Positions 4,591 through 57,837 of a stretch of 64,000 nt of DNA are shown here, piece after piece. The stretch is from Eledone cirrhosa (taxonomy: Eukaryota), in the NCBI GenBank assembly GCA_964016885.1, contig OZ024745.1:127472001-127536000 (forward strand), in the 5' to 3' direction. The notes below the pieces were generated by a model, which ran no database searches, was not told where the DNA came from, and worked only from the letters and a program-made list of their open reading frames with translations. The position numbers and the translations under genes are program-made. The number at the start of each line of letters is the position of its first letter. Positions within the stretch are counted from its first letter, which is position 1.

Positions 4591-6669
4591 TACTCAGCTG
4601 TAGAAATGAGATGAGGAGGTACGGGCCTGCCCGCCCAGCCAGTGGGATGGCGTTATCTTATGGCTAAAACAGCACGACGTGCTGTGACCAGCGGCGCCGA
4701 ATGGATGTCCGTCAGACTGGTCGGTAGAGGTGATCAAGGTGATATATATATATATAGGAAAAAGTATGAAAAAATTAGAATTTTTACCCTGGTGAATAAA
4801 TAGCCGAACTTTTCAAGGGGTACTTCCTTATATGGGAAGATTGTAGTTGTCAAAAGGATTGGTTAAAATTTGTTGTAAACACAAATAAGTCTATCATGGC
4901 ATTTGGTGGGAAGTAGGGGTGGCTGAACTTGCCTGTAGAACAATAAGGGAGTGAGTGGAGCGGTCAAGCAATGAAAGTGATATGTATACAGCAGATTCTA
5001 AGGATTGTATGAAGTGGGGGAGGGATTATAGAATAGGTAAATCGAAAGAGAGTAGGAGACAATAAAAGATACTAGAAATAAAAAATATATATATATATAT
5101 AAAAAATATATATATTACACATACATACGTAGCACATCACACAATATGTATAAAGATATGTGATATACATAGAAACACAGAGATACAACATATATCACGT
5201 AGCAACGTTAACATTGGCAACAAGAACAAATTCCAAGAGTAAAGACAACAATTGTAGACCTAATGATTACAAAAGAGAGAGAAGTATATCAACCGGAAGC
5301 AGTGCCATTGTGAACTACAGCAACGCAGCTAATCGCCATAGAGACGATGTTTTGTTTTGTATTTAGTTTTATTGCTTATAAGGTTAGAGTTAGTTAACTA
5401 TAACATGTGAAATTATCGCAGTGCATGCGTGTGTGTGTGTATCTCAGTACATTGGTTGAGGACACACACATACATACATGTACACTTGCACACATACATA
5501 CACACGCACACTCGCATACATATACACACACACTCGCACACACATATGCACACATTAACGCCCGCACACTCACACACACACACACACACTCACACACATA
5601 CAAACACATACACATACGCGCACAAATGCACATACATATATATATACACACACACGTCCACACATATATGCGCACATACTTACCCACGCAAACTCTCTCA
5701 CACACATATATTCGCACACATACATACACATGCACACCACACGCACTCGCACACATGCATACACATGCACACCACACTCGCATGCATACATACACATACA
5801 CACACTCGCCCACACATATATGCACACATACTTACGCCCGCACACTCACACTCACACTCACTCACTCGTACACATACATACACACATGTGCGTAGTTATG
5901 AAGCAAGTTTCTTCACTATACACAAAACAATTTAAGAGCGGGCAAACATAAGTGAAACAACAATACTCAAATCAATGTATTACGCTGTGGAGGACAAAGA
6001 AAGTCAAACTATGACGTTTCGGATAAATGTTTCTTTCTCAAATGAGAAGGATTGAGGAAAATATATGGGGAATAACAATTTGCGTTTGTTTGTAGAAACA
6101 TTAATAAGAATAATGGCGGAACCGTAGAGGGTTTTGACAGAGTTGTGTGTGTTGGGTAGCGTGTTAATGCTAGTGTTGCGATGAAGTGTGTGAGTGACTG
6201 TATGGGTGTATATAAAAGTGGAGAGTGTGTGAAAGGAAGAGACAAACTGTGGGGGTGGAGGTAGTGGTAGTGATTCAGGCGTTATTGATTTAATAGCGCA
6301 GTAGGGTGTAAGCGAAGGCGGATGTGATATTGACATAAAATGTATGCGATAATTGACATATGGCATAATGGGTTGTATTTATATTGTCCTTGTATGATAA
6401 CAGTATGTGATTGATGTAGAAGGACTTAACTTTCAGCATAATATCAATCATCCATTTGTCTTTGTTGCATGGGTCCCACTCGAAACATATATTGCCAATG
6501 GTAGCCAGTGTATAACTGGAGGAGTGTTGACGTATGAGCTGACTTGGAGAGGGCTCAGTGGTGGAAGTTATTGGGGCGAGTTGCTGATATTAGACATATC
6601 AAGCAATATGGTGCAAACAGTCACGTGAATTAAAGCTATTAGATGTGGGATAGAGATAGAACATGTGAG

Positions 6670-8080
6670 ATAGATAGAAGAGGTGAGATAGAGGATGTGA
6701 GAGCGTGTGAGATAGAAATGTGAGATAGATATAGAAGAGGTAAGATAGAGGATGTGAGAGCGTGTGAGATAGAAATGTGAGATAGATATAGAAGAGGTAA
6801 GATAGAGGATGTGAGAGCGTGTGAGATAGAAATGTGAGATAGATATAGAAGAGGTAAGATAGAGGATGTGAGAGCGTGTGAGATAGAAATGTGAGATAGA
6901 TATAGAAGAGGTAAGATAGAGGATGTGAGAGCGTGTGAGATAGAAATGTGAGATAGATATAGAAGAGGTAAGATAGAGGATGTGAGAGCGTGTGAGATAG
7001 AAATGTAAGATAGAGATAGAAGAGGTGAGATGGAGGATGTAATATAGAGGGTGTGAAATAGAGGATGTGAGATAGATGTGAAACAGAGATAGAAGATGTG
7101 AGATAAAGATAAAGGGCGTGATATAGAGATAGAGGGTGTGATATAGAGATAGAGGGTGTTATTTAGAGATAGAGGGTGTGATATAGAGATAGAGGGTGTT
7201 ATTTAGAGATAGAGGTTGTGATATAGAGATAGAGGGTGTGATATAGAGATAGAGGGTGTTATTTAGAGATAGAAGGTGTGATATAGAGATAGAGGGTGTG
7301 ATATAGAGATAGAGGGTGTGATATAGAGATAGAGGGTGTGATATAGAGATAGAGGGTGTGATATAGAGATAGAGGGTGTTATTTAGAGATAGAGGTTGTG
7401 ATATAGAGATAGAGGGTGTGATGTAGAGATAGAGGTTGTGATATAGAGATAGAGGGTGTGATATAGAGATAGAGGGTGTGATATAGAGATAGAGGGTGTG
7501 ATATAGAGATAGAGGGTGTTATTTAGAGATAGAAGGTGTGATATAGAGATAGAGGGTGTGATATAGAGATAGAGGGTGTGATATAGAGATAGAGGGTGTT
7601 ATTTAGAGATAGAGGGTGTGATATAGAGATAGAGGGTGTGATATAGAGATAGAGGGTGTGATATAGAGATAGAGGGTGTTATTTAGAGATAGAGGGTGTG
7701 ATATAGAGATAGAGGGTGTGATATAGAAATAGAGGGTGTGATATAGAGATAGAGGGTGTGATATATAAGTTTTGAGATAGGTGTAGAGGATGTGAGATAT
7801 AGAGATGTGAGACAGAGATAAAGCATGTGATATAGAGATAGATGAGAGAGAGAGAGACAGATGTGATATAGAGATAGATGTGATATAGAGAGTGTGAGGA
7901 GGAAGATGTGAGACAGAGATAGAGGGTATAATATAGAAACAGAGGATGTGAGATATAGATAGATGAGATAGGGATAGAGGATGTGATATAAAATATACGA
8001 GATAGAGATAAAGATAGGTGTGATAGAAAGAGGGGATATGAAATAGAGATAGGGATGTGAGATAGAGATAGGGGATGAGA
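6670..8080. repeat. Purine-rich compound minisatellite (57-bp then 20-bp units)
   Basis: 57-bp unit over about 6690-7030, 20-bp ATATAGAGATAGAGGGTGTG over about 7110-7765, degenerate thereafter. Confidence 0.9.
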
Positions 8081-10206
8081 GATTGTTATCACAGTGAAAA
8101 ATAAACACATATGTTTGCGTGATTGTAACAAGTGGTAGGTAGGGACAAGGTTTGACTAATGGTCGCCGAAATTAGTAAATTGAATTGAAAAATTTGCATC
8201 AGATTAGTAATATTTCTTTTGAAAGATTTACTTATTTGTAAGATTTATTATGCTTGATGAATATAAGGAAGACGAGTCCAGAGCATATTGTGCTAGAAGT
8301 CAGTGACCTCGCACGAGCTCCTTAAAATCGATACTGAGAGGTACCAGTCATGAACTGAAGAGAAAAAGGTATGATATTCTGCGTCAGTAAACCAAAGTGT
8401 TATCTATGTCTTGTGGAGTCTGATATTTTTGGTGATGGGTATTAGAGGAGGAAACCTTTCAGTCGGTTCTTACTGTCAACCCAAGGAAAGTTGTAGCTGG
8501 AAGCAGCATATCAAGAAATGTTGTTATTGTTATTCACTGAATCGGCTCACAACAAAATCTGTTAAAGGCCCAGAAGGCGGGGTTAACCTATATGACACAT
8601 TCTACCTACCATCTAAAACACAACAACAAATAGCTACCGTGAATGTAATTATCGTAGTATGCTTATTACTTTCAGATAGAAGATGGGGAAGGTAAAGGGA
8701 AATGAACAAAACAAAACAAAAAGGAAATAATAAGGGTAAAGAATATTTGAACAGGCTGTTAGAAAATGTCTATTGATAGGGTAAGGGAACGGGAAAACCC
8801 ATCAACAAAAAAATTAGAATGTGAATGTCCTTTAGATCTGTGGATGTCCTTTAGATCTGACATAAATGATAATAGATCTATGAAAATAAAATAAATTATA
8901 TTGTTTGGGAGGGAAAAAGACATAGAAAACCAAACCATTTAAGCTTAGAAATTGTCCTTGTCGTTTTTATTGTTGTTATAAGTGTTGTTGTTTAACCCTT
9001 GGTCAATTTTGATCAAGTATATCTGTGATCAAAAGCATTCCAGTTTTGACCATCCTGGTTTTTTCAGGGATGTGTAGGACTACAATATCAAATGTGTTCT
9101 ACCAATTATTAAACTGGCAAGCTATGATTTGATGGAGATTTGACTGCGACAGCGTGGTAACTTCTTCGATCGCTAGTAACTTTATAAATTACTTTTTTCA
9201 TTCATATTACTTTGATTCAAAAGAAAATAGTAATTTGTTTGTTTCATGTCTTTGGCAATAAATTCGGTTAAAAATGAAACATGATCGATCACCAATACCG
9301 TTTTTCAAGAGCTAACCGCTGTTTTATGGCGTTGATTAAAAAGGCCTAAAAATAAGTGTGCCTTCAAAATATACAAACCATAAAATGATCGAGGAAATGG
9401 GAAGTTTTGTTGTCCATATATTTCCCTATAAACAATTCTTATTGGGAATGCAACCGCAATTGCGTTTAATGAAACTTTGCCTTTAATAATTTCATCTAAA
9501 TCTAAGAGTGATTAGTTAACCAAATAAATTTAAGGACGGAAAAACAGCTCAGAGGTCTGTCATTTGTTTCCAGTCACTAGTGATTTGCTATGCCATTAGA
9601 CGAGATACCTCGCATCAGCTAATGTCCATCTATTTATAAATAGGGGCCACAAGATGATGTAGTCGAACGCTGCAAGCAACGCTGACTGGATAGTAAGACT
9701 AACGAGAATTCCGTTAGTCTAAATCAGAAGCGTTACTCCAGAGGAGTGCTTGAGAAGGTCCAGGGGGCGCTGAGGCCTAAGGAAGTGGTGGGTGGCAGAG
9801 AATATATAATAACATATTAAATATCAAATGATACATATATATAAATATAGTAAAATAAAAAAAATATATAGTATATATTATATTATTTATTATATATCAA
9901 TTAACGATTTTATTTATTATATATTACTAGCAGAAAAACCACCCTGCGCGTGGTTTTCTGCTAGCATGTGTAGTGTGTATATTGATATTATACGCAAGTA
10001 TATATATGCATGTAGATATGATACATCAAATAAAATCGTAATTGACAATATACACAGAAATTGAACGAAGAATGCGTTACACTGTGTTATGTAATCAGTA
10101 ACGTAATCCATGATACATTTAAAAAAGACGATATTATATATAAACTGCATTAGGAGAAAATTAGTGACGGAAATATATGAATGTTTATTTAAGCAATCGC
10201 TAACCG

Positions 10207-15295: not shown

Positions 15296-15423
15296 AAATA
15301 TTTTTTACTCTCTAAAAAAATGTTTTTTCTCCCCTAACCCTGCTTTTTTTAAAAAATCATTTTTTTAAATGTCTTTCCACCACCACACACCCTCGGAACT
15401 CTCTTCCTACACCCACGTTTCTC

Positions 15424-15451
15424 CTGATGAAGGGCTTATGCCCGAAACGTC
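15424..15451 (+). ncRNA. Minimal Penelope-type hammerhead core (helix I decayed)
   Basis: CTGATGA-A-GGGC-TTAT-GCCC-GAAA-CG-TC with an ACGT palindrome as helix III. Confidence 0.5.
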
Positions 15452-15579
15452 GTCACCCCCCCCCCCCCACTTTCAAGTTTGAAACTAATAATAATAACAA
15501 TTGTACTGTCTCTTCGTTTTTCTGTTTTTTGTTCTCTGTTTACTTAAAAAAAAAGAATATATATATATATATATATATA

Positions 15580-22521: not shown

Positions 22522-22619
22522 CATACATACACATTAGTAACATACATAAGAAACAGAAAGAACACGACTAGTTAGGAAATTACAAGTGCAATCCTTTAAT
22601 GGAACAGTAAAAATAAGTA

Positions 22620-23470
22620 GATAGAGATGCAGGCAACACACCTAGATGTGATAACAAGTGCAGACTCTGCAGAACTAACATCGAGGATATCACCCATGTC
22701 ATCAGCAGCTGTCCAAAGATGTCATCGCGGTACTATCTACCTATGAGGCATGATGTAGTGGCCAAAACACTGTACAATGCAGTTCGTAAAAAAGATAGCC
22801 CCGATAATAAACACATTAAAAGCTGCAGCAATGTGGAAGATATCCATATACATAATATGAAAGAGTACTGGTGGAATGTTCCAGTAAAAACACCAATAAA
22901 ATGCCGGCATAACAGACCAGATATTATGATATAGGACAGGGAGAAGAAAGCATGCTCAGTAGTGGAAATTAGCTGCCCAGCAGATGGCAATATAATATCA
23001 AAGATTAGTGAAAAGGAGAATATTTATGCAGAACTGATGAGAAATCTGCAGATACTCCACCCTGATTACACCATCAGATTTATGCCTATGATTATTGGGA
23101 CACTGGGGGTATGTTAGTAACTGCCTCAATACAAATCTTGAGAAGCTAGGCTTCACAGGAACAGAAAGAACACAACTAGTTAGGAAATTACATGTACAAT
23201 CCATTAATGGAACAGTAAAAATATGTAAAACATTCCAAAAATTTTGCATCTAATAACTGCATATACACATGTACAGATACAAAGCATATACACATGTACA
23301 CATACAACTCAAAACATACGCATCCACACACACAATTACATCTATATCTACACATGCATATCTACCTAGTTGATGTTGTGTAAATTCCAATGAGAGAGTC
23401 TTGTGTCTATGTTAGAAACCGACTCTCTCTCTATTGGTAAACATTTGTGAAATTATAAAACCAGAAGAAC
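22620..23470 (+). mobile_element. Second, distinct RLE non-LTR retrotransposon 3' fragment (pseudogenised)
   Basis: CRLCRTNIEDITHVISSCPKMSSRYYLPMRHD...NRPDIMI*DREKKACSVVEISCP, with an internal stop at 22932-22934 and a frameshift near 23105. 22552-22615 duplicates 23161-23223. Ends in (TACA)n. Confidence 0.85.
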
Positions 23471-23619
23471 ATACACAGCTACATACATACATACATACAT
23501 ACATAGCTACATACATACCTACCTACATACATACATAATGCCTATATACATACATACACAGCTCCATACATACATACATACATACATACATACATACATA
23601 CATACATACATACATACAT

Positions 23620-24495
23620 AAAAAAAATTGACCAATTTACAGAAAAAGTTGTGCATGGATACTTGAGGCGTAAAATACAGACCATAGAGGGGATAAACCA
23701 CTCAAAAAGCCTGGCATGGAGTTCCGACAAGTTTATGACATCACACCTTGAGGGATATCTCTATGCAATACAGTAACAAGAACTCCCTACCAAATATCTG
23801 TTGCACAAAAGAGGAGGGCCAGCAGCTGACAATACATGTAGGCTATGTAAAACAAAGATCGAGGATGTAAGCCACATTGTTGCCAGCTGCGAAAGAATGT
23901 CATCTCGCTACTACCTCCCCATGAGACACGATGGGATAGCTAGAACCATCTGGAACGCACTTCGGAAAACAAAATTAACAACAAACGAGGAAGAATATAT
24001 TGAGACAGATGGCACTAAGGAATACTGGTGGAACCTGAAAATAAAGACTGTCACCAAATTAAAGCACAACCGGCCTGATATTGTAGTTTGGGACCACACA
24101 TTGAAAACGTGTTCTGTTGTGGAGATCAGCTGCCCACTTGATGTAAACGTTGTCAGAAAAATACAGGAGAAGGAGGACATCTACGGACCATTGATGAGGA
24201 GTTTACAAATCCAGTATCCAAGATACACCTTTAGCTTCATACCCATCATTATTGGTGCTACGGGGTATATACCAACCCGCTTGGACCAAAGTATGACTGA
24301 ACTTGAATTTGCGGACAAAAAGCGCAGCTCCCTAATTCATAGTCTACAAATGGCTGCGATAGCTGGCACCTTCAAAATTTGCAAAACATTCTTGCGATTC
24401 AAGGGATGAAAATTTCTTTTCTTTTACAACCTTGCCACCAGGAAGGTGGCCGGTCAAAAAAATATACTCGAAATTAAGAGAAAGAGAAAACAAAT
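23620..24495 (+). mobile_element. 3' fragment of a restriction-like-endonuclease non-LTR retrotransposon (R4/Dong-like)
   Basis: EGYLYAIQ*QELPTKY (stop at 23774-23776), CCHC knuckle CRLCKTKIEDVSHIVASC, RHD, and PD-(D/E)xK-like NRPDIVV...EISCP. Flanked by (TACA)n. Confidence 0.88.
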
Positions 24496-27562: not shown

Positions 27563-27937
27563 GCGTGTGTGTGCGTATGTGAATTTGTGAATGTGTGGAA
27601 ATTTAATTAAAAAAAAAGATATGCAATAGGAAGTGTTCTGTGTTTTATATTTGTCGAGCCTTTATATAAACACATTCACTCACACACTCCCTCTCATACG
27701 TAAACATACGTACACACAAACACACACATTCGTACACGTACATACACATAGATTGCGTGCGAATATACCAATAGTTAGCAGAATGTGAGTGCAATTACGA
27801 ACAAAATACGAACGAACTCAATACATTAGGCAGAGGTAGATATTTAATGCATACACATACTCTCATGTACAAATATTTTCAAAATTTCTTGTAACAATCT
27901 TTTCCGAACTTTCATCTACCTACCTGTTTGTCTCCAT

Positions 27938-27971
27938 TTTCTGACGAAGGATTTCCGTCCGAAACGTAGAA
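27938..27971 (+). ncRNA. Minimal Penelope-type hammerhead motif
   Basis: TTT-CTGACGA-A-GGA-TTTCCG-TCC-GAAA-CG-TA-GAA, with a weak 3-bp helix I. Confidence 0.5.
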
Positions 27972-28026
27972 CCCTTTTCCACTAGCTCCCAAGCGTGATC
28001 CTATGATAATAACAATGTGTATGTGT

Positions 28027-32437: not shown

Positions 32438-32897
32438 CCCAGCTTTTTCAACCTGCGTTGAATCGGTTAGGCTGTAATTTAGACTTTACTTTGTCCCCCG
32501 TTACTATACCTACTCTGCATTTCAACATGCATCGAGTATTGCCCTGATATATATATTTTCGCTTTTTCCCCCTTTTCCCTTCTGTTATCCTATACTTTTT
32601 TCCCCTCCCTCCTTCGTTTTCCCCAATAACTTACCAAGTTATTGAACACACTGAGCGGTAGCTATCTTGTCTTTAATGGAAACATCCGAGACCCCCAGCA
32701 GACAACTGGTGAGTAAGACTTCTCCCGTTCTTGCTTTCTTATTACTACGACTTTTAAGCATACCTTATCTAGCAACTACACAACCCATTCTCTTCTTTAT
32801 ATATATATATATACGTTATTCCGGGTTGAGTCGGAGGTAACCACAGTAAGTAAGGTACTCAATACATTGCAGAGTATAAAAGTTTTAATATAGATGT

Positions 32898-32946
32898 GAT
32901 TCTACAGGACAAGAACTGTTTCATTCTTTAGAAATCATCAGGAATC
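32898..32946 (-). ncRNA. Type I hammerhead ribozyme in a Penelope-like terminal repeat fragment
   Basis: Minus strand reads GATTC-CTGATGA-T-TTC-TAAA-GAA-T-GAAA-CAG-TTCTTGTC-CTG-TA-GAATC. All three helices form and the cleavage triplet is GUA. Confidence 0.75.
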
Positions 32947-35789: not shown

Positions 35790-36015
35790 CTATACCGGAT
35801 CCAAGGAAAAGTTATCTGTCTGATAAGCAAGTCTTCTCTCACTTACAGTACAACCATTAGACCGTAATTGACGTGTCTCCTCGCTTTGTGTATTCAACAA
35901 CTAACGCAAGGATCCCCATTTCTTTGAAATTAGAGAAACTATGCTCACACCTTTTAAACTTTGTGTTGTACCTACCAGATTTTTTTACAAAATTTAAATA
36001 TCAAATCTTCCACTC
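35790..36015 (+). pseudogene. Possible highly decayed Penelope-like ORF remnant
   Basis: VSPRFVYSTTNARIP...NFVLY resembles the linker before the PLE GIY-YIG domain. Weak similarity by eye only. Confidence 0.25.
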
Positions 36016-36244
36016 AGCTGAACTCTTCTTTGTGTTCCCGCCAACAAATGACACGCAATAATTCAAAGGAATTTTTAAACATAGTATCGATGGTGATGGG
36101 ATGACTGAAGGAACAAGATTTTGAGCCATAAACTCATAGGACGTGAGTTCATACCCTCCCACTCTTGCATGCTCTTCGTTGTGATTTTCAGGGCAACCAG
36201 TGATCCCTAACATTATAAGGTACATTTCTTTTCCTCGTTATCTT

Positions 36245-36715
36245 CAGTTCGGTATTCATGCCAACCGTGACTTATGGCCATGAATCTTGGGTAATAACCG
36301 AAATAATACGACCGTGAATACAAGCGGCCGAAATGGATTTCCTCTGAAAGGTTTTTGGAGTAACGTTACTTGATAGAGTGCCTAGTTCGGAGATGAGAGA
36401 GTCACTCTAGTTATAACCGCTACCTTTCCGAATTGAGAGATCACATCTCCGGGACTATGGGCATGTGGTTAGAATGTCTCAGGAAAGAATCGCTGGACAG
36501 ATCTTAGGGGCAATTAGCAGGAGACCCAGGAGTAGACTCTGAGCAAGATGGTTGGATAACATCCATGAGCTTGACTGGTCTCGCTTGGGGATCCTGCTGG
36601 ATCAGTTGTAGACGGTTGCTGGAAGGAGTGTTTGAGGACTCTGCTCCCACGACCCTCTTAGGAATAAGTGGGCCAAGAAGAAGAAGAAGAAGAAGAAGAA
36701 GAAGAAGAAGAAGAA
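36245..36715 (+). mobile_element. Second copy of the (GAA)n-tailed RTE-type LINE 3' end
   Basis: Aligns by eye with 59210-59700 (gtaacgttacttgatagagtgc, aggaaagaatcgctggacagat, gcaagatggttggataacatccatgagc) and carries a (GAA)n tail. Confidence 0.85.
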
Positions 36716-37116
36716 TATTTCTTTTCCTTACTTAAGTGACTGGAAGAGGAACCCGATCACCTGGAGATATCCTCAATAGTCTATAGTCATATCCAGGGTT
36801 GAATTATAGGTAGAGCTATAACATTTCCCAAATGTTACAAAAGAAATGCATATTTTTGTACATAAGCCAATTTCACCCCTCTTCATTTCGGTATCAACAA
36901 ATAAAATACTAGTCAAGTACTGGGTCGATTCTGCTTTTCTCACACGCTTTGGAAGCATTCGACTGTGATCAAACCTGGGATCAAAAGGGATGGGCGCTGC
37001 GAGGTTTAAAATGCACTAGACACAACGTTTATTACGGCGGTGCCCCGACGACCCCGTTAAATAAATATATATATATATATAATTGTATCAATACACACAC
37101 ACACATATATATAAAT

Positions 37117-37310
37117 GAAAAGAGTCAGGACTCCGACGGCTGAGCTCCGGCCGTTTCGACAGCTAGATCCGAACAGATCTAGCTGTAGAAACGGCCGGAG
37201 CTCAGCCGTCGGGGTCTTGACGCTTTTCCTATTACCCACTCTGCTACCCTAAGTATTGAGTACTCTGGTGCATTATGGTCCACCTGATATCTTACCACAC
37301 CCTCTTTGTT
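37117..37310. mobile_element. Fold-back element with a hammerhead 3' half (GAAACGGC-CGGAGCTCA-GCCGTC)
   Basis: Palindrome 37117-37228 plus tail TATTACCCACTCT...TATTGAGTAC. Related copies at 32131-32288, 33907-33963, 34485-34580, 51918-52020 and 57737-57795. Confidence 0.6.
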
Positions 37311-37321
37311 ATATATATATA

Positions 37322-38675
37322 TCATCATCATCATCTTCGTTTAACGTCCATTTTCCACGCTAGCATGGATTAGACGGGAGTTGTCCCACTTGAGGCAAGG
37401 CTGGTCGGGTGACCGTGTCTCGCTCATATAGGACTATCAGGCAGATTTTCTACGGCTGGATGCCCTTCCTAACACCAACCACATTTACAGTGTGGAACTG
37501 GGAACTTTTTACCGTGTCACCTACACGACCACATTACAGCGTGGACTGTGTTTTTTTTTGTCTTGACACTTACACGATCTCAATCTCATTATCTCGTGTT
37601 GTTGGTGGGAGTGGGAGGATAGGGTAGGGTAGTGGATGGGGTGTATATTTGGTTAAGAGGTGCCTACTGACTGTAGGTTTCGCTTTGTACATAGGCAAGG
37701 CGGGTCTTCTGTATTACTGCGTAGCGCCAAAGATCTCAGTCCAGAGACATTGTCTTAGAGAGATGTAAGTATGTGATTCGGAATTTATCAGATCATCCCA
37801 GGTTTTTCTGGGTCTGCCTACTCCGTGGCTACCATCAATTTTGATCGCCCTGCACTTTTTTATGCAGTTGTCGTCTTTCATGCGCATCATGTGACCATAC
37901 CAACGTAGTCTTCTCTCAAGTAAACAGCATCTGATCCCTCTTATTCCTAATTTCTCACTTAGTTCATTTATGCTTTGCCGTTCACGTATATTACTATTAC
38001 ACATCCAACGGAGCATGCATGCTTCGTTCCTTTCCAGTCTACGCAGGTCCTCTGCACGTAATGCCCATGTCTCACTGCCATGTAGCATTGCTGTTCGTAT
38101 ACAGGCATCATACAATCTGCCTTTCATTTTTAGAGAGAAACCTTTTGTGGCCAACAGCGGTATAAGCTCTCTGAACTTTTTCCATTCCGTTCTGACTCTG
38201 GCTACTGTACTTTCAGAACACCCCCCACCACTGCTGATATCGTCTCCCGGGTAACGGAAAGTATCTACTATTTCTATAGAACCATCTGGGCAACAGAAGG
38301 AGTTAGTATCCTTTGGACACTTGCTACTTATTGCACCTGAGCATTGGCCACATATAAAGTCTACGTTCTTAGATAGTTTACCTGTGATCCCACTACATCT
38401 TTTATGTACCCATACTTTGCATTTGGGACATAAAATGGAATTTCTGCCTACTCCTTTCCTACACACTGAGCATGGTCATTTCCCTATTTTCCTTTCTACA
38501 AACTTTAGTCTTAGACAAGTTAACTTTAAGGCCTTTTGATTCTAGGCCATGCTTCCATGTTTCGAATTTCTTCTCTAGTTCAGCCATTGATTCAGCTATG
38601 GGCGTTAGATCATCTGCGTATAGGAGTTCCCATGGGCAGCCGGTCTTGAACTCCTCTGTTATGGCCTGAAGGGCA
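37322..38675 (-). mobile_element. 5'-truncated RTE-type LINE (reverse transcriptase C-terminal region, frameshifted)
   Basis: ALQAITEEFKTGCPWELLYADDL (YADD motif), then GLKVNLSKTKV, a zinc-finger-like CPKCKVWVHKRC, and MLHGSETW...RLRWYGHMMRM...GRPRKTW. 3' tail GTTAAACGAAGATGATGAT at 37322-37345. Confidence 0.92.
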
Positions 38676-38947
38676 ATAATATATATATATATATATATAT
38701 ATAAAAATGTAAGTATGCATGTATACGTACATACATATATGTATACAGACGTACAGTAGCATGCACATATATATATATATACACATATATACATACATGT
38801 GCATACAGGTACACATACATATATGCACGTATCAGTTTAGCGGCGCCAACGTCGCTTTGTTCGTTTGTAAACAAACTGAACAGCCTGAATTTATGCCATA
38901 CGGTGTTAAGGCAACCACGTCACCTTTTTGTTCAACACTGACACAGG

Positions 38948-38992
38948 AACGATGTACTAGTTTCAAGCTTGTTAGCTATCATCAGCACCGTT
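38948..38992 (-). ncRNA. Type I hammerhead ribozyme, first of 7 minus-strand copies (38948, 39414, 39880, 40346, 40812, 41278, 41744)
   Basis: Reverse complement of the motif at 42416-42460, present in each full forward unit. Confidence 0.85.
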
Positions 38993-41900
38993 TACCCATC
39001 TGCCAGATAGTTGAACGTTCGAATGTATATACTTTCCTTATGAAAATTAACGGCTGAGCAGCCTAATTTGCATATTGAGTGAGTTAAATCGGTCAGGCAT
39101 ACCGAAAACGATAAATTGAAACAAAATGAAAATGAAATTTCATTTCTCACTCTTAGTATGGCACTTACTTAAATGTAAGTATGCATGTATACGTACATAC
39201 ATATATGTATACAGACGTACAGTAGCATGCACATATATATATATATACACATATATACATACATGTGCATACAGGTACACATACATATATGCACGTATCA
39301 GTTTAGCGGCGCCAACGTCGCTTTGTTCGTTTGTAAACAAACTGAACAGCCTGAATTTATGCCATACGGTGTTAAGGCAACCACGTCACCTTTTTGTTCA
39401 ACACTGACACAGGAACGATGTACTAGTTTCAAGCTTGTTAGCTATCATCAGCACCGTTTACCCATCTGCCAGATAGTTGAACGTTCGAATGTATATACTT
39501 TCCTTATGAAAATTAACGGCTGAGCAGCCTAATTTGCATATTGAGTGAGTTAAATCGGTCAGGCATACCGAAAACGATAAATTGAAACAAAATGAAAATG
39601 AAATTTCATTTCTCACTCTTAGTATGGCACTTACTTAAATGTAAGTATGCATGTATACGTACATACATATATGTATACAGACGTACAGTAGCATGCACAT
39701 ATATATATATATACACATATATACATACATGTGCATACAGGTACACATACATATATGCACGTATCAGTTTAGCGGCGCCAACGTCGCTTTGTTCGTTTGT
39801 AAACAAACTGAACAGCCTGAATTTATGCCATACGGTGTTAAGGCAACCACGTCACCTTTTTGTTCAACACTGACACAGGAACGATGTACTAGTTTCAAGC
39901 TTGTTAGCTATCATCAGCACCGTTTACCCATCTGCCAGATAGTTGAACGTTCGAATGTATATACTTTCCTTATGAAAATTAACGGCTGAGCAGCCTAATT
40001 TGCATATTGAGTGAGTTAAATCGGTCAGGCATACCGAAAACGATAAATTGAAACAAAATGAAAATGAAATTTCATTTCTCACTCTTAGTATGGCACTTAC
40101 TTAAATGTAAGTATGCATGTATACGTACATACATATATGTATACAGACGTACAGTAGCATGCACATATATATATATATACACATATATACATACATGTGC
40201 ATACAGGTACACATACATATATGCACGTATCAGTTTAGCGGCGCCAACGTCGCTTTGTTCGTTTGTAAACAAACTGAACAGCCTGAATTTATGCCATACG
40301 GTGTTAAGGCAACCACGTCACCTTTTTGTTCAACACTGACACAGGAACGATGTACTAGTTTCAAGCTTGTTAGCTATCATCAGCACCGTTTACCCATCTG
40401 CCAGATAGTTGAACGTTCGAATGTATATACTTTCCTTATGAAAATTAACGGCTGAGCAGCCTAATTTGCATATTGAGTGAGTTAAATCGGTCAGGCATAC
40501 CGAAAACGATAAATTGAAACAAAATGAAAATGAAATTTCATTTCTCACTCTTAGTATGGCACTTACTTAAATGTAAGTATGCATGTATACGTACATACAT
40601 ATATGTATACAGACGTACAGTAGCATGCACATATATATATATATACACATATATACATACATGTGCATACAGGTACACATACATATATGCACGTATCAGT
40701 TTAGCGGCGCCAACGTCGCTTTGTTCGTTTGTAAACAAACTGAACAGCCTGAATTTATGCCATACGGTGTTAAGGCAACCACGTCACCTTTTTGTTCAAC
40801 ACTGACACAGGAACGATGTACTAGTTTCAAGCTTGTTAGCTATCATCAGCACCGTTTACCCATCTGCCAGATAGTTGAACGTTCGAATGTATATACTTTC
40901 CTTATGAAAATTAACGGCTGAGCAGCCTAATTTGCATATTGAGTGAGTTAAATCGGTCAGGCATACCGAAAACGATAAATTGAAACAAAATGAAAATGAA
41001 ATTTCATTTCTCACTCTTAGTATGGCACTTACTTAAATGTAAGTATGCATGTATACGTACATACATATATGTATACAGACGTACAGTAGCATGCACATAT
41101 ATATATATATACACATATATACATACATGTGCATACAGGTACACATACATATATGCACGTATCAGTTTAGCGGCGCCAACGTCGCTTTGTTCGTTTGTAA
41201 ACAAACTGAACAGCCTGAATTTATGCCATACGGTGTTAAGGCAACCACGTCACCTTTTTGTTCAACACTGACACAGGAACGATGTACTAGTTTCAAGCTT
41301 GTTAGCTATCATCAGCACCGTTTACCCATCTGCCAGATAGTTGAACGTTCGAATGTATATACTTTCCTTATGAAAATTAACGGCTGAGCAGCCTAATTTG
41401 CATATTGAGTGAGTTAAATCGGTCAGGCATACCGAAAACGATAAATTGAAACAAAATGAAAATGAAATTTCATTTCTCACTCTTAGTATGGCACTTACTT
41501 AAATGTAAGTATGCATGTATACGTACATACATATATGTATACAGACGTACAGTAGCATGCACATATATATATATATACACATATATACATACATGTGCAT
41601 ACAGGTACACATACATATATGCACGTATCAGTTTAGCGGCGCCAACGTCGCTTTGTTCGTTTGTAAACAAACTGAACAGCCTGAATTTATGCCATACGGT
41701 GTTAAGGCAACCACGTCACCTTTTTGTTCAACACTGACACAGGAACGATGTACTAGTTTCAAGCTTGTTAGCTATCATCAGCACCGTTTACCCATCTGCC
41801 AGATAGTTGAACGTTCGAATGTATATACTTTCCTTATGAAAATTAACGGCTGAGCAGCCTAATTTGCATATTGAGTGAGTTAAATCGGTCAGGCATACCG

Positions 41901-42334
41901 AAAACGATAAATTGAAACAAAATGAAAATGAAATTTCATTTCTCACTCTTAGTATGGCACTTACTTAAATGTAAGTATGCATGTATACGTACATACATAT
42001 ATGTATACAGACGTACAGTAGCATGCACATATATATATATATACACATATATACATACATGTTCAGTTTGTTTACAAACGAACAAAGCGACGTTGGCGCC
42101 GCTAAACTGATACGTGCATATATGTATGTGTACCTGTATGCACATGTATGTATATATGTGTATATATATATATATGTGCATGCTACTGTACGTCTGTATA
42201 CATATATGTATGTACGTATACATGCATACTTACATTTAAGTAAGTGCCATACTAAGAGTGAGAAATGAAATTTCATTTTCATTTTGTTTCAATTTATCGT
42301 TTTCGGTATGCCTGACCGATTTAACTCACTCAAT

Positions 42335-42342
42335 ATGCAAAT
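42335..42342 (+). promoter_or_regulatory. Octamer motif ATGCAAAT (one per 466-bp unit)
   Basis: Perfect octamer about 80 nt upstream of the hammerhead core on the ribozyme strand. Function is unverified. Confidence 0.3.
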
Positions 42343-42415
42343 TAGGCTGCTCAGCCGTTAATTTTCATAAGGAAAGTATATACATTCGAACGTTCAACTA
42401 TCTGGCAGATGGGTA

Positions 42416-42460
42416 AACGGTGCTGATGATAGCTAACAAGCTTGAAACTAGTACATCGTT
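42416..42460 (+). ncRNA. Type I hammerhead ribozyme, first of 6 plus-strand copies (42416, 42882, 43348, 43814, 44280, 44746)
   Basis: AACGGTG-CTGATGA-T-AGCT-AACA-AGCT-T-GAAA-CTAG-TA-CATCGTT. Intact core, 7-bp helix I (one G-U), 4-bp helix II, palindromic ACTAGT helix III, GUA cleavage triplet with a predicted cut after 42453. Confidence 0.85.
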
Positions 42461-45286
42461 CCTGTGTCAGTGTTGAACAAAAAGGTGACGTGGTTGCCTT
42501 AACACCGTATGGCATAAATTCAGGCTGTTCAGTTTGTTTACAAACGAACAAAGCGACGTTGGCGCCGCTAAACTGATACGTGCATATATGTATGTGTACC
42601 TGTATGCACATGTATGTATATATGTGTATATATATATATATGTGCATGCTACTGTACGTCTGTATACATATATGTATGTACGTATACATGCATACTTACA
42701 TTTAAGTAAGTGCCATACTAAGAGTGAGAAATGAAATTTCATTTTCATTTTGTTTCAATTTATCGTTTTCGGTATGCCTGACCGATTTAACTCACTCAAT
42801 ATGCAAATTAGGCTGCTCAGCCGTTAATTTTCATAAGGAAAGTATATACATTCGAACGTTCAACTATCTGGCAGATGGGTAAACGGTGCTGATGATAGCT
42901 AACAAGCTTGAAACTAGTACATCGTTCCTGTGTCAGTGTTGAACAAAAAGGTGACGTGGTTGCCTTAACACCGTATGGCATAAATTCAGGCTGTTCAGTT
43001 TGTTTACAAACGAACAAAGCGACGTTGGCGCCGCTAAACTGATACGTGCATATATGTATGTGTACCTGTATGCACATGTATGTATATATGTGTATATATA
43101 TATATATGTGCATGCTACTGTACGTCTGTATACATATATGTATGTACGTATACATGCATACTTACATTTAAGTAAGTGCCATACTAAGAGTGAGAAATGA
43201 AATTTCATTTTCATTTTGTTTCAATTTATCGTTTTCGGTATGCCTGACCGATTTAACTCACTCAATATGCAAATTAGGCTGCTCAGCCGTTAATTTTCAT
43301 AAGGAAAGTATATACATTCGAACGTTCAACTATCTGGCAGATGGGTAAACGGTGCTGATGATAGCTAACAAGCTTGAAACTAGTACATCGTTCCTGTGTC
43401 AGTGTTGAACAAAAAGGTGACGTGGTTGCCTTAACACCGTATGGCATAAATTCAGGCTGTTCAGTTTGTTTACAAACGAACAAAGCGACGTTGGCGCCGC
43501 TAAACTGATACGTGCATATATGTATGTGTACCTGTATGCACATGTATGTATATATGTGTATATATATATATATGTGCATGCTACTGTACGTCTGTATACA
43601 TATATGTATGTACGTATACATGCATACTTACATTTAAGTAAGTGCCATACTAAGAGTGAGAAATGAAATTTCATTTTCATTTTGTTTCAATTTATCGTTT
43701 TCGGTATGCCTGACCGATTTAACTCACTCAATATGCAAATTAGGCTGCTCAGCCGTTAATTTTCATAAGGAAAGTATATACATTCGAACGTTCAACTATC
43801 TGGCAGATGGGTAAACGGTGCTGATGATAGCTAACAAGCTTGAAACTAGTACATCGTTCCTGTGTCAGTGTTGAACAAAAAGGTGACGTGGTTGCCTTAA
43901 CACCGTATGGCATAAATTCAGGCTGTTCAGTTTGTTTACAAACGAACAAAGCGACGTTGGCGCCGCTAAACTGATACGTGCATATATGTATGTGTACCTG
44001 TATGCACATGTATGTATATATGTGTATATATATATATATGTGCATGCTACTGTACGTCTGTATACATATATGTATGTACGTATACATGCATACTTACATT
44101 TAAGTAAGTGCCATACTAAGAGTGAGAAATGAAATTTCATTTTCATTTTGTTTCAATTTATCGTTTTCGGTATGCCTGACCGATTTAACTCACTCAATAT
44201 GCAAATTAGGCTGCTCAGCCGTTAATTTTCATAAGGAAAGTATATACATTCGAACGTTCAACTATCTGGCAGATGGGTAAACGGTGCTGATGATAGCTAA
44301 CAAGCTTGAAACTAGTACATCGTTCCTGTGTCAGTGTTGAACAAAAAGGTGACGTGGTTGCCTTAACACCGTATGGCATAAATTCAGGCTGTTCAGTTTG
44401 TTTACAAACGAACAAAGCGACGTTGGCGCCGCTAAACTGATACGTGCATATATGTATGTGTACCTGTATGCACATGTATGTATATATGTGTATATATATA
44501 TATATGTGCATGCTACTGTACGTCTGTATACATATATGTATGTACGTATACATGCATACTTACATTTAAGTAAGTGCCATACTAAGAGTGAGAAATGAAA
44601 TTTCATTTTCATTTTGTTTCAATTTATCGTTTTCGGTATGCCTGACCGATTTAACTCACTCAATATGCAAATTAGGCTGCTCAGCCGTTAATTTTCATAA
44701 GGAAAGTATATACATTCGAACGTTCAACTATCTGGCAGATGGGTAAACGGTGCTGATGATAGCTAACAAGCTTGAAACTAGTACATCGTTCCTGTGTCAG
44801 TGTTGAACAAAAAGGTGACGTGGTTGCCTTAACACCGTATGGCATAAATTCAGGCTGTTCAGTTTGTTTACAAACGAACAAAGCGACGTTGGCGCCGCTA
44901 AACTGATACGTGCATATATGTATGTGTACCTGTATGCACATGTATGTATATATGTGTATATATATATATATGTGCATGCTACTGTACGTCTGTATACATA
45001 TATGTATGTACGTATACATGCATACTTACATTTAAGTAAGTGCCATACTAAGAGTGAGAAATGAAATTTCATTTTCATTTTGTTTCAATTTATATATATA
45101 TATATATATATATATAAATGAATTCAACAGGACTAGAACTGTTTCATTCGTATGAAACTGTTCTAGTCGTGTAGAAGCCATTTCTATATTGAATAATGAT
45201 GTATTGAGTACCTTATTAACCGTGGTTACCGCCGATTTAACTCGGGATCTACACACACACACATACACACACACACACAAACATAC

Positions 45287-45379
<93 letters not shown>

Positions 45380-45842
45380 GTATCAAAAAAAGATGCACAC
45401 AGAAAAACAGATATATAGAAACGAACAAACACCCGCATCTCTACCTCGTCAGCAACCTGCTGGCGTGCAATTTTGCGCATTAAATATATCTATCTATATA
45501 TTATTATATATTATATCTAAATAAAGTAGCAGTAATACACTGGGTAATTACTGGCCTTGTGCCAAAAGTAGAAACAATTATATCTTATATCTGTATACAT
45601 AGAATGTATATGTCAGAAGACCTTCGAAAACTGCATAACTACACGCTTACTAAAATAACTGAGGAAGGGATTGGTTACCTGACTAATAAAATCGGAAAGA
45701 AACCCAACCGTGGCGTGTGTTTTTATTGGCAGTGTCACCTTCTCAAAATATAACAATATCTGTTTTAACACACGATTTCACATCAAGAATCTTGCAAAAC
45801 AAATACAGTAACGAAGTAATATGTATATGTGTCGTCTGTGTA

Positions 45843-45917
<75 letters not shown>

Positions 45918-46077
45918 ATTTGTGTCTGTGCGTGTGTATGGAAAGTAGAGGAAAGTATTGTAAATGCCATAAATGCGAAGAAAAGGAGGGAAAAGGCAAA
46001 TAATATTAGGCAACGGTAGAAACTGGGGTAAAGTTACAGGTGACAAACTCTAGAGATTGATGGAATGAGCGATAGAT

Positions 46078-46149
<72 letters not shown>

Positions 46150-46178
46150 GGATAATTAGCTAGATATTTAGTTATTTA

Positions 46179-46238
<60 letters not shown>

Positions 46239-46260
46239 TGTAATGAATACAAAGGAGTAT

Positions 46261-46644
46261 GTGACTATGTCACATACTTCTATTTTTAGCAAACAAGGGG
46301 AGATAAACTGACAGAGCTCTGTTTCGTACTTATCAAAGCCTAGCACTTCCCTTGTTCGCTGAAAATTATGAATGTTGGATTCTTATAGAATTCCATTAAT
46401 AATCAGGAACTGATTATACAGAGCGGTTGCCGGTCCAGCAAAATTGAAAATTAGAATTGATGCTCTGAAATAGCGATGTATACATGAATGTATATACAGT
46501 GTATTTTGCAATACACTGTATACATATATAACATTCATAATTTTCAGCAAACAAGGGAAGTGCTAGGTACCAACAGTACGAAATAGAGCTCTGTCAGCTT
46601 ATCTCCCCTTGCTTGCTGAAAAAAGAAGTAAGTGACATTGTCAC
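46261..46644. repeat. Inverted repeat with ~115-bp arms
   Basis: 46261-46377 is the reverse complement of 46530-46644 (caaggggagataa.ctgacagagctct; ctagcacttcccttgt). Confidence 0.8.
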
Positions 46645-46746
46645 TACTTTAAAACAATAGCGCAAGGTCTTCAAAATGATTTTAATTAAGCATACAGTGT
46701 ATTGCAAAATACACTATATATATACATTCTTATATATGTATGTATA

Positions 46747-46798
<52 letters not shown>

Positions 46799-46845
46799 TA
46801 TATATATACATACACATGTATGTATATGTATATATATACATACAC

Positions 46846-46895
<50 letters not shown>

Positions 46896-46912
46896 ACGCA
46901 CACACATATATA

Positions 46913-46944
<32 letters not shown>

Positions 46945-47265
46945 CTGCATATTAAGATCAGATGTCGAACCCCTTGGCCGTGCAGTGAACCTCTTAACCA
47001 CACAGCTATGTTTGTGCCTATATTAATAAATAGATGAATCGATATGGAGATAGATAACTAGAAAGAAAGAAAGAAAGAGAGAAAGGGAGGGAAAGATGGT
47101 GTGAAATATCGTAATTCAGATAGATAATAAATTATTTATGATATATGTTACAGATAATGTACTGATAGGCTTGATAACAAATGTAACATTTATTATATAT
47201 AAATATATATAGCCGGGTAAATGAAGATAGGAATGAGAACGGAAAGAAAGGAAGGAAACTTCGCG

Positions 47266-47334
<69 letters not shown>

Positions 47335-47881
47335 AAAAATGAGCGGAGCAAGCAATTATCAAACAAAACAAGTTTATAATAACCCGTTTTTACTTGTGGC
47401 CTATTTTTGCGTGTGTCACTTCAACGGCTTGACCGCATGCGTTGGGCAGTAAGCGAAATATTGACTTACTATGAGGTTTTGTACCCTTATAGTATGGAAA
47501 TAAGCTGTCTGAAGATTTAATTCTTTCCATTGGAAATTCTCTGGATTTCCAATCTTTTGATTAGTGAAACTGTCGGTAATGGCAATAGAAGAGATGAATA
47601 TTTAAATCGTTTTTTAATTTATTTAAAAGATTGTTTGATAATTGCTTGCTCCGCTCATTTTTATAGTTCTGGTATCTCAAATTAGTACCATCGAACCACA
47701 ACTATTATAAACACCATGCATATTTCTGTAGGTACCTAGTGCCTGTTGGAATATCCATACCCTTATATATATATATATATATACTTCTACCTGGAGTTGC
47801 CACCGATAGATAGTATTAGCAATAGGAAAGACCAACGGAAACATTGTTTCCTCGGTCCGATTTGACGAAAGTCGATCAACT

Positions 47882-47920
<39 letters not shown>

Positions 47921-48842
47921 TTGTGTATGTTTAACTGTTTATGTGTGTGTGTGTGAGAGAGAGAGAGGGGGGGGGGGGTAGGAGAGGGAGGGAGGGGTGT
48001 ATTTATAACAAGATAGAGATTGGCATGGGAAATAAAAATAAAAATGCTACAATACATAAATAAATAAGTGAGAAGAGAGAGAGAGAGAGAGAGAGAGGAA
48101 GAGAGAGAGAGAGAGAGAGAGACGGAGAGGGAGACGGAGAGGGATAGATAGATAGATAGATAGATAGAAAGAGAGAGAGAGTGACTAGACAACGTCACGC
48201 TTATATCACAAAGGAGGGAAACATTAGAGAAAGACATTCCTACATAAATTAATACCAAAGAAGAAATACTCTCGCTCTCCCTCTCTCTCTCACTCTCTCT
48301 CACTCTCTCTCTCACACACACACACATTTCACTTACTCTCTCTCACTCTCTCCCTCACACACATTTCACTCTCGCTCTCTCTCCCTTCCTCTCTCTCACT
48401 CTCTCTCACACACACACATAGTCCGACACACGCTTTACTCTCTCTCTCACATACACATAATCAGACACACACACACTAACAAGATTCACACACATATTTG
48501 CACACACACACACAGTCACACAGATACTCTCACACATACACGCACATACACGCATAGTCACACGCACACACACACATACACACACATACACGCATAGTCA
48601 CACGCACACACACGCACACATACACACACACACACATACACACACATACACACACACACATACACGCAGAGTCACACACACACACACACACACAATAACA
48701 AGATACATACAGAATGATAGACTCACGCACAAACACAGACCTACAGATATTCTCACACACACACACACAATAACAATACACACATACACACACATAGATT
48801 CACATAGTCACACACACACACAGACAGACCTACAGAGATATT

Positions 48843-50116: not shown

Positions 50117-51344
50117 TAGAGTGCTTAAACTATCTGTGACTAATCCCGGTTTTTTTCATAAAAACTGTGATAATTATTGCTATTTTGCTGAACTCCTTGT
50201 AGAGTTTTTTTTCAGAATGTATTTGACTGCTATTTCTTGTAAATAAACATTCACTTCCATCCTGACGTCACTAGCCCCGTTTTTTCCTCATGTGCTTTTT
50301 CATAAATACACATGAAGGCGAACTAGCCAGTTTTAGAACTCCCTTTTTCGGATTATATTACTGTGAGAGCCCTGGTTTCTGTTGAGCTCTGCTGATGAAT
50401 GAAATCCAACCGTGACCATCTCCACTGAAAGTTTTCATGAAATAGTCTTTTAAGACTATACAGAGCATTTGATGTTATTCCAAATTGAAGGATAAGTGTT
50501 TCAAACTTTGTTTTATCATGAGTTAAAGGTCTATAGATTTTTCCCTGGATTTTACTAAATTCTGTGGATGAATTTGTATCCTGATTCTCTTTTGAGATGA
50601 GTTTGAGTTATTTTTCCTAAATCTTTCGTTAACTACTTTTCCCATCTTGACGTTATAGTCGCATATATGTTATAGAATGCCGTTAGCTTCTTGCTAAAAC
50701 AATCTCTATACCTCTCATTTATATTTATACTCGGATTCTTTTCCTAGAGTGCTTAAACTATCTGTGACTAATCCCGGTTTTTTTCATAAAAACTGTGATA
50801 ATTATTGCTATTTTGCTGAACTCCTTGTAGAGTTTTTTTTCAGAATGTATTTGACTGCTATTTCTTGTAAATAAACATTCACTTCCATCCTGACGTCACT
50901 AGCCCCGTTTTTTCCTCATGTGCTTTTTCATAAATACACATGAAGGCGAACTAGCCAGTTTTAGAACTCCCTTTTTCGGATTATATTACTGTGAGAGCCC
51001 TGGTTTCTGTTGAGCTCTGCTGATGAATGAAATCCAACCGTGACCATCTCCACTGAAAGTTTTCATGAAATAGTCTTTTAAGACTATACAGAGCATTTGA
51101 TGTTATTCCAAATTGAAGGATAAGTGTTTCAAACTTTGTTTTATCATGAGTTAAAGGTCTATAGATTTTTCCCTGGATTTTACTAAATTCTGTGGATGAA
51201 TTTGTATCCTGATTCTCTTTTGAGATGAGTTTGAGTTATTTTTCCTAAATCTTTCGTTAACTACTTTTCCCATCTTGACGTTATAGTCGCATATATGTTA
51301 TAGAATGCCGTTAGCTTCTTGCTAAAACAATCTCTATACCTCTC

Positions 51345-51352
<8 letters not shown>
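50117..51352. repeat. Recent 628-bp tandem duplication, 2 copies
   Basis: TAGAGTGCTTAAACTATC at 50117 and 50745. The copies look identical, and the second ends in (TA)n. Confidence 0.92.
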
Positions 51353-57600: not shown

Positions 57601-57716
57601 ATCCCGGATTCAATCGGGGGTAACCACAGTAAATAAGGTACTCAATACATATCAAATCCTGATGATTTCTCTTGAATGAAACAGTTCTATTCCTGTAGAA
57701 GCCATTTCTATATTAA
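57601..57716 (+). mobile_element. Same hammerhead-bearing family as 32815-32950, with an inverted tail segment 5' of the hammerhead
   Basis: CTGATGA-TTTCTCTTGAAT-GAAACAG-TTCTATTC-CTG-TA at 57659-57697. 57601-57650 is the family tail in the opposite orientation. Further fragments at 16985-17045, 18581-18618 and 45120-45250. Confidence 0.6.
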
Positions 57717-57837
57717 ATATATATATATATATATCGTCCAGAATTAGCCGTCGAGACGGCTTGAGCTCTGCCGTCGGGGACATACTTGTTCCTATATATA
57801 TATATATTGTGTGTGTGTGTGTGTATCTTTCTCTCTC

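Follow-up and report, generated by a model that had tools for sequence, protein, structure and literature searches.

Metazoan non-long-terminal-repeat (non-LTR) retrozymes are tandem, noncoding units of low GC content, each with one type I hammerhead ribozyme, and occur in tens of thousands of copies. [quoted passage not shown] PLE insertions contain an inverted 5′-truncated copy and a 30- to 40-bp tail that is often one-ended, and they lie in (TA)n targets, according to the accessible portion of Craig et al. 2021 (PMC8557442). On AT-rich DNA in vitro, the anole PLE protein, a predicted dimer, makes cuts in both strands and extends them (Frangieh et al. 2024, PMC11167929); its reverse transcription starts at two internal stem-loop sites, the interval between which corresponds to the tail (PMC11167929). 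The mobilizer of retrozymes and the tandem/inverted insertion mode of PLEs are both open questions in published work, and the family described here links them. We analyze it from an array of identical 466-bp units in a 64,000-nucleotide stretch of the Eledone cirrhosa genome (assembly GCA_964016885.1, contig OZ024745.1, forward-strand positions 127,472,001 to 127,536,000), which we call the window. This DNA is dense in TA/CA microsatellites and in that respect seems octopus-like.

The locus is one very young insertion of a hammerhead-bearing non-LTR retrozyme and shares with the metazoan elements just described the tandem noncoding units, the single type I hammerhead in each, the low GC content, and the high copy number. 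The 466-bp unit is slightly longer than the 150 to 450 bp of retrozymes and falls inside the range of 51 to 972 bp given by Li et al. The class itself has already been described; the value of this member lies in a strict rule by which each two-armed insertion examined has one end of each of two kinds and in the clonality of the arms.

Two inverted arms of identical units

Tandem Repeats Finder resolved two 466-bp arrays, at 38705 to 42062 and 42060 to 45093, each with 100% matches; they are mutual reverse complements, and neither has a single mismatch at a lag of 466. Together they comprise 13.7 identical copies (~14), 7.21 in the minus-strand arm and 6.51 in the plus-strand arm (Table 1; unit position 1 is 42454, the base directly after the predicted cut). 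The original prediction, made from the sequence alone, had described a satellite-like 466-bp repeat of identical, ORF-free (open reading frame-free) units with 13 hammerheads, inserted as a young multimer. Its period and copy identity hold, as does the ribozyme count (the 45-nt motif occurs 7 times on the minus strand and 6 times on the plus strand); the layout, by contrast, is that of two inverted arms, and "satellite" is only partly apt for a family of thousands of dispersed small arrays. Retrozyme identity, youth, and insertion as a multimer are supported.

The unit is noncoding, as had been claimed: no ATG-started frame of the circular unit exceeds 112 aa (the longest one is antisense), and a Pfam search of the unit gave no match. 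Its GC content is 0.36 to 0.37. ARAGORN called no tRNA on the unit, and the RNA polymerase III boxes picked out by eye are unconvincing. The flanks of the array are mutually unrelated, and the arms are unequal in length and in end point.

The hammerhead and its dispersal

Each motif comprises a helix I of 6 to 7 bp, the CUGAUGA core, a U.U opposition followed by a 4-bp helix II, and a helix III of two pairs around a palindrome; GUA cleavage is predicted from the motif after 42453. The "complete type I hammerhead" of the original prediction is upheld as regards the core (CUGANGA, GAAA, and UH) and the three helices in type I order and has to be qualified as regards the two-pair helix III and the base of helix II, where the usual G10.1-C11.1 pair is absent and U.U stands in all 9 aligned variant rows. 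The axolotl HHR_Amex2 ribozyme resembles it in both the U.U and the short helix III and is cleaved efficiently as a dimer (PMC7229834); a short helix III hinders cleavage of monomers and permits a dimeric fold in tandem repeats (PMC4209133, accessible portion). With its helix III of two pairs around a palindrome, the window ribozyme falls into the dimer-requiring type and is probably active solely as a dimer. In the predicted fold of a two-hammerhead stretch, both helix I extensions form, with a z value of −6.3 that is largely due to the AU-rich hairpin.

A search with Rfam hammerhead models, proposed beforehand as a check, returned, when narrowed, only HH9, whose 18.5 bits (E = 0.02) fall short of the gathering score of 52; over positions 36000 to 48000, only AT-rich microRNA look-alikes appeared among the 150 of 264 Rfam matches listed. 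Covariation of the helices among genomic homologs, whose absence had been named in advance as one of the refuting findings, is present: in 9 hand-picked variants drawn from three families, 9 of the 17 pairs have changed on both sides, compared with 0 to 3 in slid controls, although most of these changes come from one divergent 310-bp family (2 rows), so that the count of events is below that of cells. In the fetched stretches, related families also alter both sides of the hammerhead helices. A genome count, likewise proposed beforehand, recovered 8,299 exact matches to the 45-mer in 3.0 Gb; there are 36,770 U.U-class hammerhead motifs, a 29-nt tail motif recurs exactly 26,730 times, and the reversed control gave 0 matches in all three cases. 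Because the 8,299 matches stand against none for the control and because the helices covary, the motif is beyond chance, and we are highly confident that this is a real hammerhead family. With 13 units and a minimum free energy (MFE) of −9.5 kcal/mol for the motif, the array is a retrozyme as defined by Li et al. (two or more tandem units in a row, every one of them containing a complete type I hammerhead, and a motif MFE of < −5 kcal/mol).

Every two-armed insertion examined has one end of each kind

At the first six other loci inspected, five insertions were head to head, with outer ends at unit positions 243 to 248 and 309 to 310 and inner junctions anywhere. We then surveyed 89 stretches, 40 of them from the first tail-motif matches on sequence C1, about 30 from exact hammerhead matches, and the rest from DNA searches or diagnostic patterns. 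Outer ends fall at site 1, positions 243 to 251, the greater part of it within a small hairpin's loop, or at site 2, positions 309 to 310. The stretches hold 42 minus/plus end pairs, 36 contiguous and 6 interrupted, with 52 further ends unpaired. All 36 contiguous two-armed insertions have one site 1 end (~248) and one site 2 end (~310), and so do the arm pairs that are interrupted (6/6); selection by the tail motif could conceal pairs of two site 1 ends, but not pairs of two site 2 ends. For the youngest subfamily the set is closed, with 76 pattern matches in 13 loci, 2 of them of the parent subfamily; here 10 of 11 loci are two-armed, and the rule is kept in all 10. No two-armed insertion examined lacks the two-site signature, which picks out two exact start positions on the predicted 466-nt RNA.

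Inner junctions behave differently from the outer ends. They were analyzed in the 26 clean rows of 50 candidates (a few of them in the AT-rich part, one locus counted twice): none of 52 inner ends lies within 5 nt of the cut site, against 1.1 expected if they were uniform, and the mean microhomology at the junction is 2.5 nt (23 rows), compared with 0.74 in simulation. Targets are AT-rich or (TA)n microsatellites. A candidate empty site was found for 6 of 72 spans, none of them decisive on whether the (TA)n existed beforehand or was added, or clean enough to show a target-site duplication; both ends of the array lie in (TA)n.

In two stretches (L071 and L167), a retrozyme arm is joined head to head to the inverted arm of an autonomous PLE family. 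These junctions, which are either mixed insertions or cases of nesting, violate the one-of-each rule and were excluded as evidence. Separately, another retrozyme family, whose unit measures 310 bp and has a covaried U.U hammerhead, occurs head to head in (TA)n at L059, positions 6070 to 8200 (C1, 5.544 Mb), where it was inserted beside a copy of the 466-bp family.

The footprint is that of a Penelope-like element

An inverted 5′-truncated segment, a tail at one end only, and a (TA)n target are all seen in the retrozyme array, as in endonuclease-positive PLEs (PMC11167929 and the accessible portions of PMC8557442 and PMC4209133). Further resemblances to those elements are the internal reverse transcription start in a stem-loop and the hammerhead upstream of the start sites. 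Unlike them, the retrozyme has no ORF, its arms run to many units where theirs are partial tandems, and its tail measures ~60 nt and so exceeds the published 30 to 40 nt. The fixed two-site outer ends, the inverted arms, and the (TA)n targets support the suggestion, already made for this DNA, of mobilization by PLEs, and that the insertion is of the PLE type is in our view very likely.

The genome also contains young, intact PLEs of two families, each with at least 100 near-identical copies; the first encodes a single ORF of 1,211 aa and the second two ORFs of 436 and 715 aa, with a GIY-YIG domain. The second family, which combines reverse transcriptase (RT) and GIY-YIG domains, obeys the same rule: 20 of its ends lie at its own site 1, and another 19 fall 40 nt further on (2 unresolved), and each of the 8 stretches holding both ends has one of each kind, with a tail of 40 nt. 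Named relatives of one of the PLE proteins are bivalve or bivalve-symbiont entries.

Two stretches (L178 and L179) carry the young two-ORF PLE (436 aa, followed by a 715-aa RT plus GIY-YIG protein), an unusual organization relative to single-ORF PLEs, in which the hammerhead pattern used found no motif. L180 contains an intact PLE of 1,211 aa whose linker is Asn rich and whose 5′ arm is inverted; a hammerhead-like motif lies 242 nt ahead of its start codon.

Among nonautonomous elements, the closest parallels are those of Chlamys, such as MRC1 (PMC8557442, accessible portion), which are also PLE passengers and have pLTRs and multicopy head-to-tail insertions. According to the same portion, MRC1-type elements are similar at the 3′ end to their autonomous families, and canonical hammerheads are absent from most Chlamys elements; in the window family, by contrast, every unit has a covarying hammerhead. 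The window family also differs from retrozymes as presented in the main texts of PMC7229834 and the Li et al. preprint in carrying the two-site, head-to-head footprint of PLEs: in those main texts the words "tail" and "orientation" are absent and "inverted" appears only in one reference title. We found no published account of this family or of tail-bearing retrozymes, although supplements, Dfam, or Repbase could hold one; the word "ribozyme" is not used in the accessible portion of the Octopus vulgaris repeat annotation (PMC13282606).

Fourteen organism labels share sequence words with the family; run X5 gave 14 low-depth contigs, and a sample of the reads of X23 (~1/100 of the run) gave 0 matches, for which reasons we do not claim presence across species. 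Run X12, whose library type is not recorded, yielded 54 matching contigs, which can neither separate a circle from a tandem nor show expression. Among the runs listed with shared sequence words, none is on record as RNA, which tells neither for nor against expression.

Probable clonal copying of one monomer at young loci

Every unit of the window array, in either arm, departs from the six closest loci at unit positions 173 and 397. These locus-private letters are G173 (42626) and A397 (42850), the latter present in 13/13 window units. A 35-mer across A397 has 29 matches in the genome, 13 of them in the window, and the other 16 are all on other subfamilies, mostly as single-unit changes. Similar cases occur elsewhere: the 16 genomic matches to A133G all lie in the two arms of a single locus, and an 8-bp deletion and A139G are fixed in both arms of two further young loci. 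The remaining differences in young arrays are mostly single-unit changes. Since private variants are fixed in both arms, each such insertion passed through one monomer sequence that was copied repeatedly onto both strands. The assembly, which represents one haplotype, contains no multimeric parent array for the window haplotype or the A133G haplotype; clonal arms with no such parent make a circle the simplest account, and a single circular RNA monomer was probably the template at the window locus. Young clonal arrays with private variants amount to a natural pedigree in which rolling-circle reverse transcription can be tested.

Adenosine-to-inosine editing, considered as a source of the private variants, is unsupported: 2 A>G and 1 T>C changes are found among the 8 private fixed ones, and the single-unit changes are strand symmetric (21 A>G and 19 T>C of 222), in a test that is underpowered and excludes the most slippage-prone part of the unit.

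Two long, older arrays with higher-order periods, one in L181-L182 (C3, 180.04 Mb; 27 units) and one in L081-L082 (C4, 212.9 Mb; at least 30 units), are retrozyme insertions becoming satellites.

A model of the insertion and its alternatives

We favor, with moderate confidence, an account in which a young retrozyme was written into (TA)n by the RT/endonuclease of a PLE priming on both strands, likely while rolling round one circular monomer. Multimeric transcripts would first cleave themselves through dimeric hammerheads after position 466 and be ligated into 466-nt circles. A dimeric PLE protein would then nick both strands of the (TA)n, as the fixed ends and the in vitro behavior of the anole protein suggest, with one strand priming at site 1 (243 to 251, in the hairpin loop) and the other at site 2 (309 to 310), never both at the same site. 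Each enzyme might copy several units while displacing strands, and the two cDNAs would meet at arbitrary positions and be joined via 1- to 4-nt microhomology, a step whose footprint is visible at the junctions. The expected product is a head-to-head array in which just one side has a tail, of ~60 nt. We advance more tentatively, and at rather less than even confidence, the stronger proposal that the dimeric Penelope enzyme runs two simultaneous rolling-circle reverse transcriptions from two fixed sites on the same ribozyme-made RNA circle; if true, this would explain both the tandem retrozymes and the inverted PLE insertions with their one-sided tails. The one-of-each rule and the clonal arms make PLE mobilization of retrozymes, and likewise rolling-circle reverse transcription, directly testable, and the resulting spacer-free palindromes of several kilobases may be sources of double-stranded RNA and genome instability.

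Several observations weigh against rolling round a circle or against PLE mobilization. No partner PLE sharing the retrozyme hammerhead or tail was found, either in two genome searches (38,012 and 20,456 candidates, of which 150 of each were scored) or by tblastn over the fetched stretches among the matches listed, and in the few families inspected, the likeness to autonomous pLTRs is confined to ~17 nt at site 1 of family 2. At other loci the arms are less uniform: L085 has an ordered series of variants common to both arms; a period-2 alternation marks L166 and L096; L088 and L165 are organized in blocks; the first-copied unit at the C14 locus belongs to another subfamily; the 5′ end at the C12 locus sits on the cut site; and at C3, 180 Mb (L181-L182), an arm of 27 units has period-5 higher-order repeats, some of them common to the short arm. 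These loci thus point also to multimers, whether linear or circular, to switching between templates, and to subsequent amplification. As the assembly represents one haplotype, a parent array could be missing from it. In the literature, cleavage was seen in just 1/9 Xenopus dimers (Li, Clavereau, and Pollet 2026, 10.64898/2026.07.22.740005), the main substrate of the anole PLE is uncleaved RNA and its ribozyme needed protein (PMC11167929), and nonautonomous Chlamys elements yield multicopy insertions (PMC8557442, accessible portion).

Much of this could be accommodated if the same two-strand priming by a PLE used a linear, uncleaved multimeric transcript of a parent array, with the hammerhead slow or blocked and no circle needed. 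The common ordered variants of L085, the change of subfamily at C14, and the end at the C12 cut site would suit such a template, as would the dominance of uncleaved RNA as the substrate in vitro (PMC11167929) and the multicopy head-to-tail insertions of the nonautonomous Chlamys elements (accessible portion of PMC8557442). It is nonetheless unlikely, if worth keeping in view: the assembly has no parent array for the window haplotype or the C4 haplotype, and a clonal parent must itself derive from one monomer, so that a monomer-to-multimer step is still required in the lineage.

We regard it as improbable that a short PLE-type insertion was later amplified by slippage or unequal crossing-over and homogenized, satellite-like, by conversion between its arms. 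Arm-to-arm conversion is well established for palindromes, and the higher-order periods and blocks of older loci are what such amplification would leave. The window array, however, shows 0 differences in 6.4 kb and yet has two private fixed letters, single-unit changes at sister loci have not spread, and conversion leaves both the random inner junctions and the fixed outer ends unexplained. Serial copying of cleaved linear monomers, in which the enzyme reaches the 5′ end of one RNA and jumps to the following RNA at its 3′ end, would give the same head-to-tail product and might account for the change of subfamily within an arm at C14; it is very improbable, given that arrays are mostly clonal despite a pool of many subfamilies, that 8,299 exact copies show seamless joining at the cut site, and that inner ends do not pile up there.

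Least probable of all is that the perfect identity and the spacer-free palindrome reflect a mirrored or overpolished read, or a Helitron or terminal-inverted-repeat DNA element with a chance hammerhead-like motif, since the flanks are unrelated, the arms differ in length and end point, the layout recurs at diverged loci bearing their own mutations, 5′-truncated single-arm copies and variable junctions are unlike terminal-repeat transposons, and the motif covaries; the exact unit count is the only real doubt on the side of assembly.

Table 1. Parts of the retrozyme array in the window
Feature	Position	Strand	Remark
Left (TA)n target microsatellite	38679..38704	none	
Left arm, 7.21 identical units	38705..42062	−	Outer 3′ end at unit position 250 (start site 1); inner 5′ end at position 155
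Seven hammerheads, 45 nt each	38948..41788	−	Starts at 38948, 39414, 39880, 40346, 40812, 41278, 41744
Head-to-head junction	42060..42062	none	3-bp microhomology common to both arms; no spacer
Right arm, 6.51 identical units	42060..45093	+	Unit position 73 at the inner end; position 310 (start site 2) at the outer 3′ end
Extended helix I uniting both ends of cleaved monomer	42392..42481	+	Prediction
Type I hammerhead, first of six	42416..42460	+	Others start at 42882, 43348, 43814, 44280, 44746
Single 466-nt monomer, from one predicted cut site to the next	42454..42919	+	
AU-rich long hairpin, unit positions ~121-239	42574..42692	+	Length differs among loci through slippage
Small hairpin, unit positions 240-259	42693..42712	+	Loop 247-252 contains start site 1; from fold prediction and end positions
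Tail of ~60 nt, unit positions 251-310	45034..45093	+	Right end only
Right (TA)n target microsatellite	45094..45116	none	

Neighboring elements in the window

The left (TA)n is abutted by a 5′-truncated long interspersed nuclear element (LINE) fragment on the minus strand (37300 to 38679) with an LLYADD RT motif, which we take to be RTE-like and which has no second match in the window. Beside it, amid TA runs, lies a small, near-perfect fold-back element (37117 to 37310) with 74 BLAST matches in the fetched stretches, which may be another nonautonomous PLE-type passenger. Fragments of a small family with a U.U-type hammerhead-like motif occur at 32818 to 32924, 45117 to 45250, and 57601 to 57719; one of them adjoins the right (TA)n of the array, and a head-to-head copy of this family is present in L071. 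Two hammerhead-like motifs, both minimal and of the type carried by PLE pLTRs, are located at 15416 to 15460 and 27933 to 27977. An inverted pair of segments at 46280 to 46720 is, by eye, similar to the tail region of the 310-bp retrozyme family. LINE fragments with a CCHC/endonuclease-like C terminus, presumably Dong/R4-like, extend from 22617 to 24406, and a tandem duplication of ~628 bp spans 50200 to 51350, with a candidate CTGATGA...GAAA motif in each copy.

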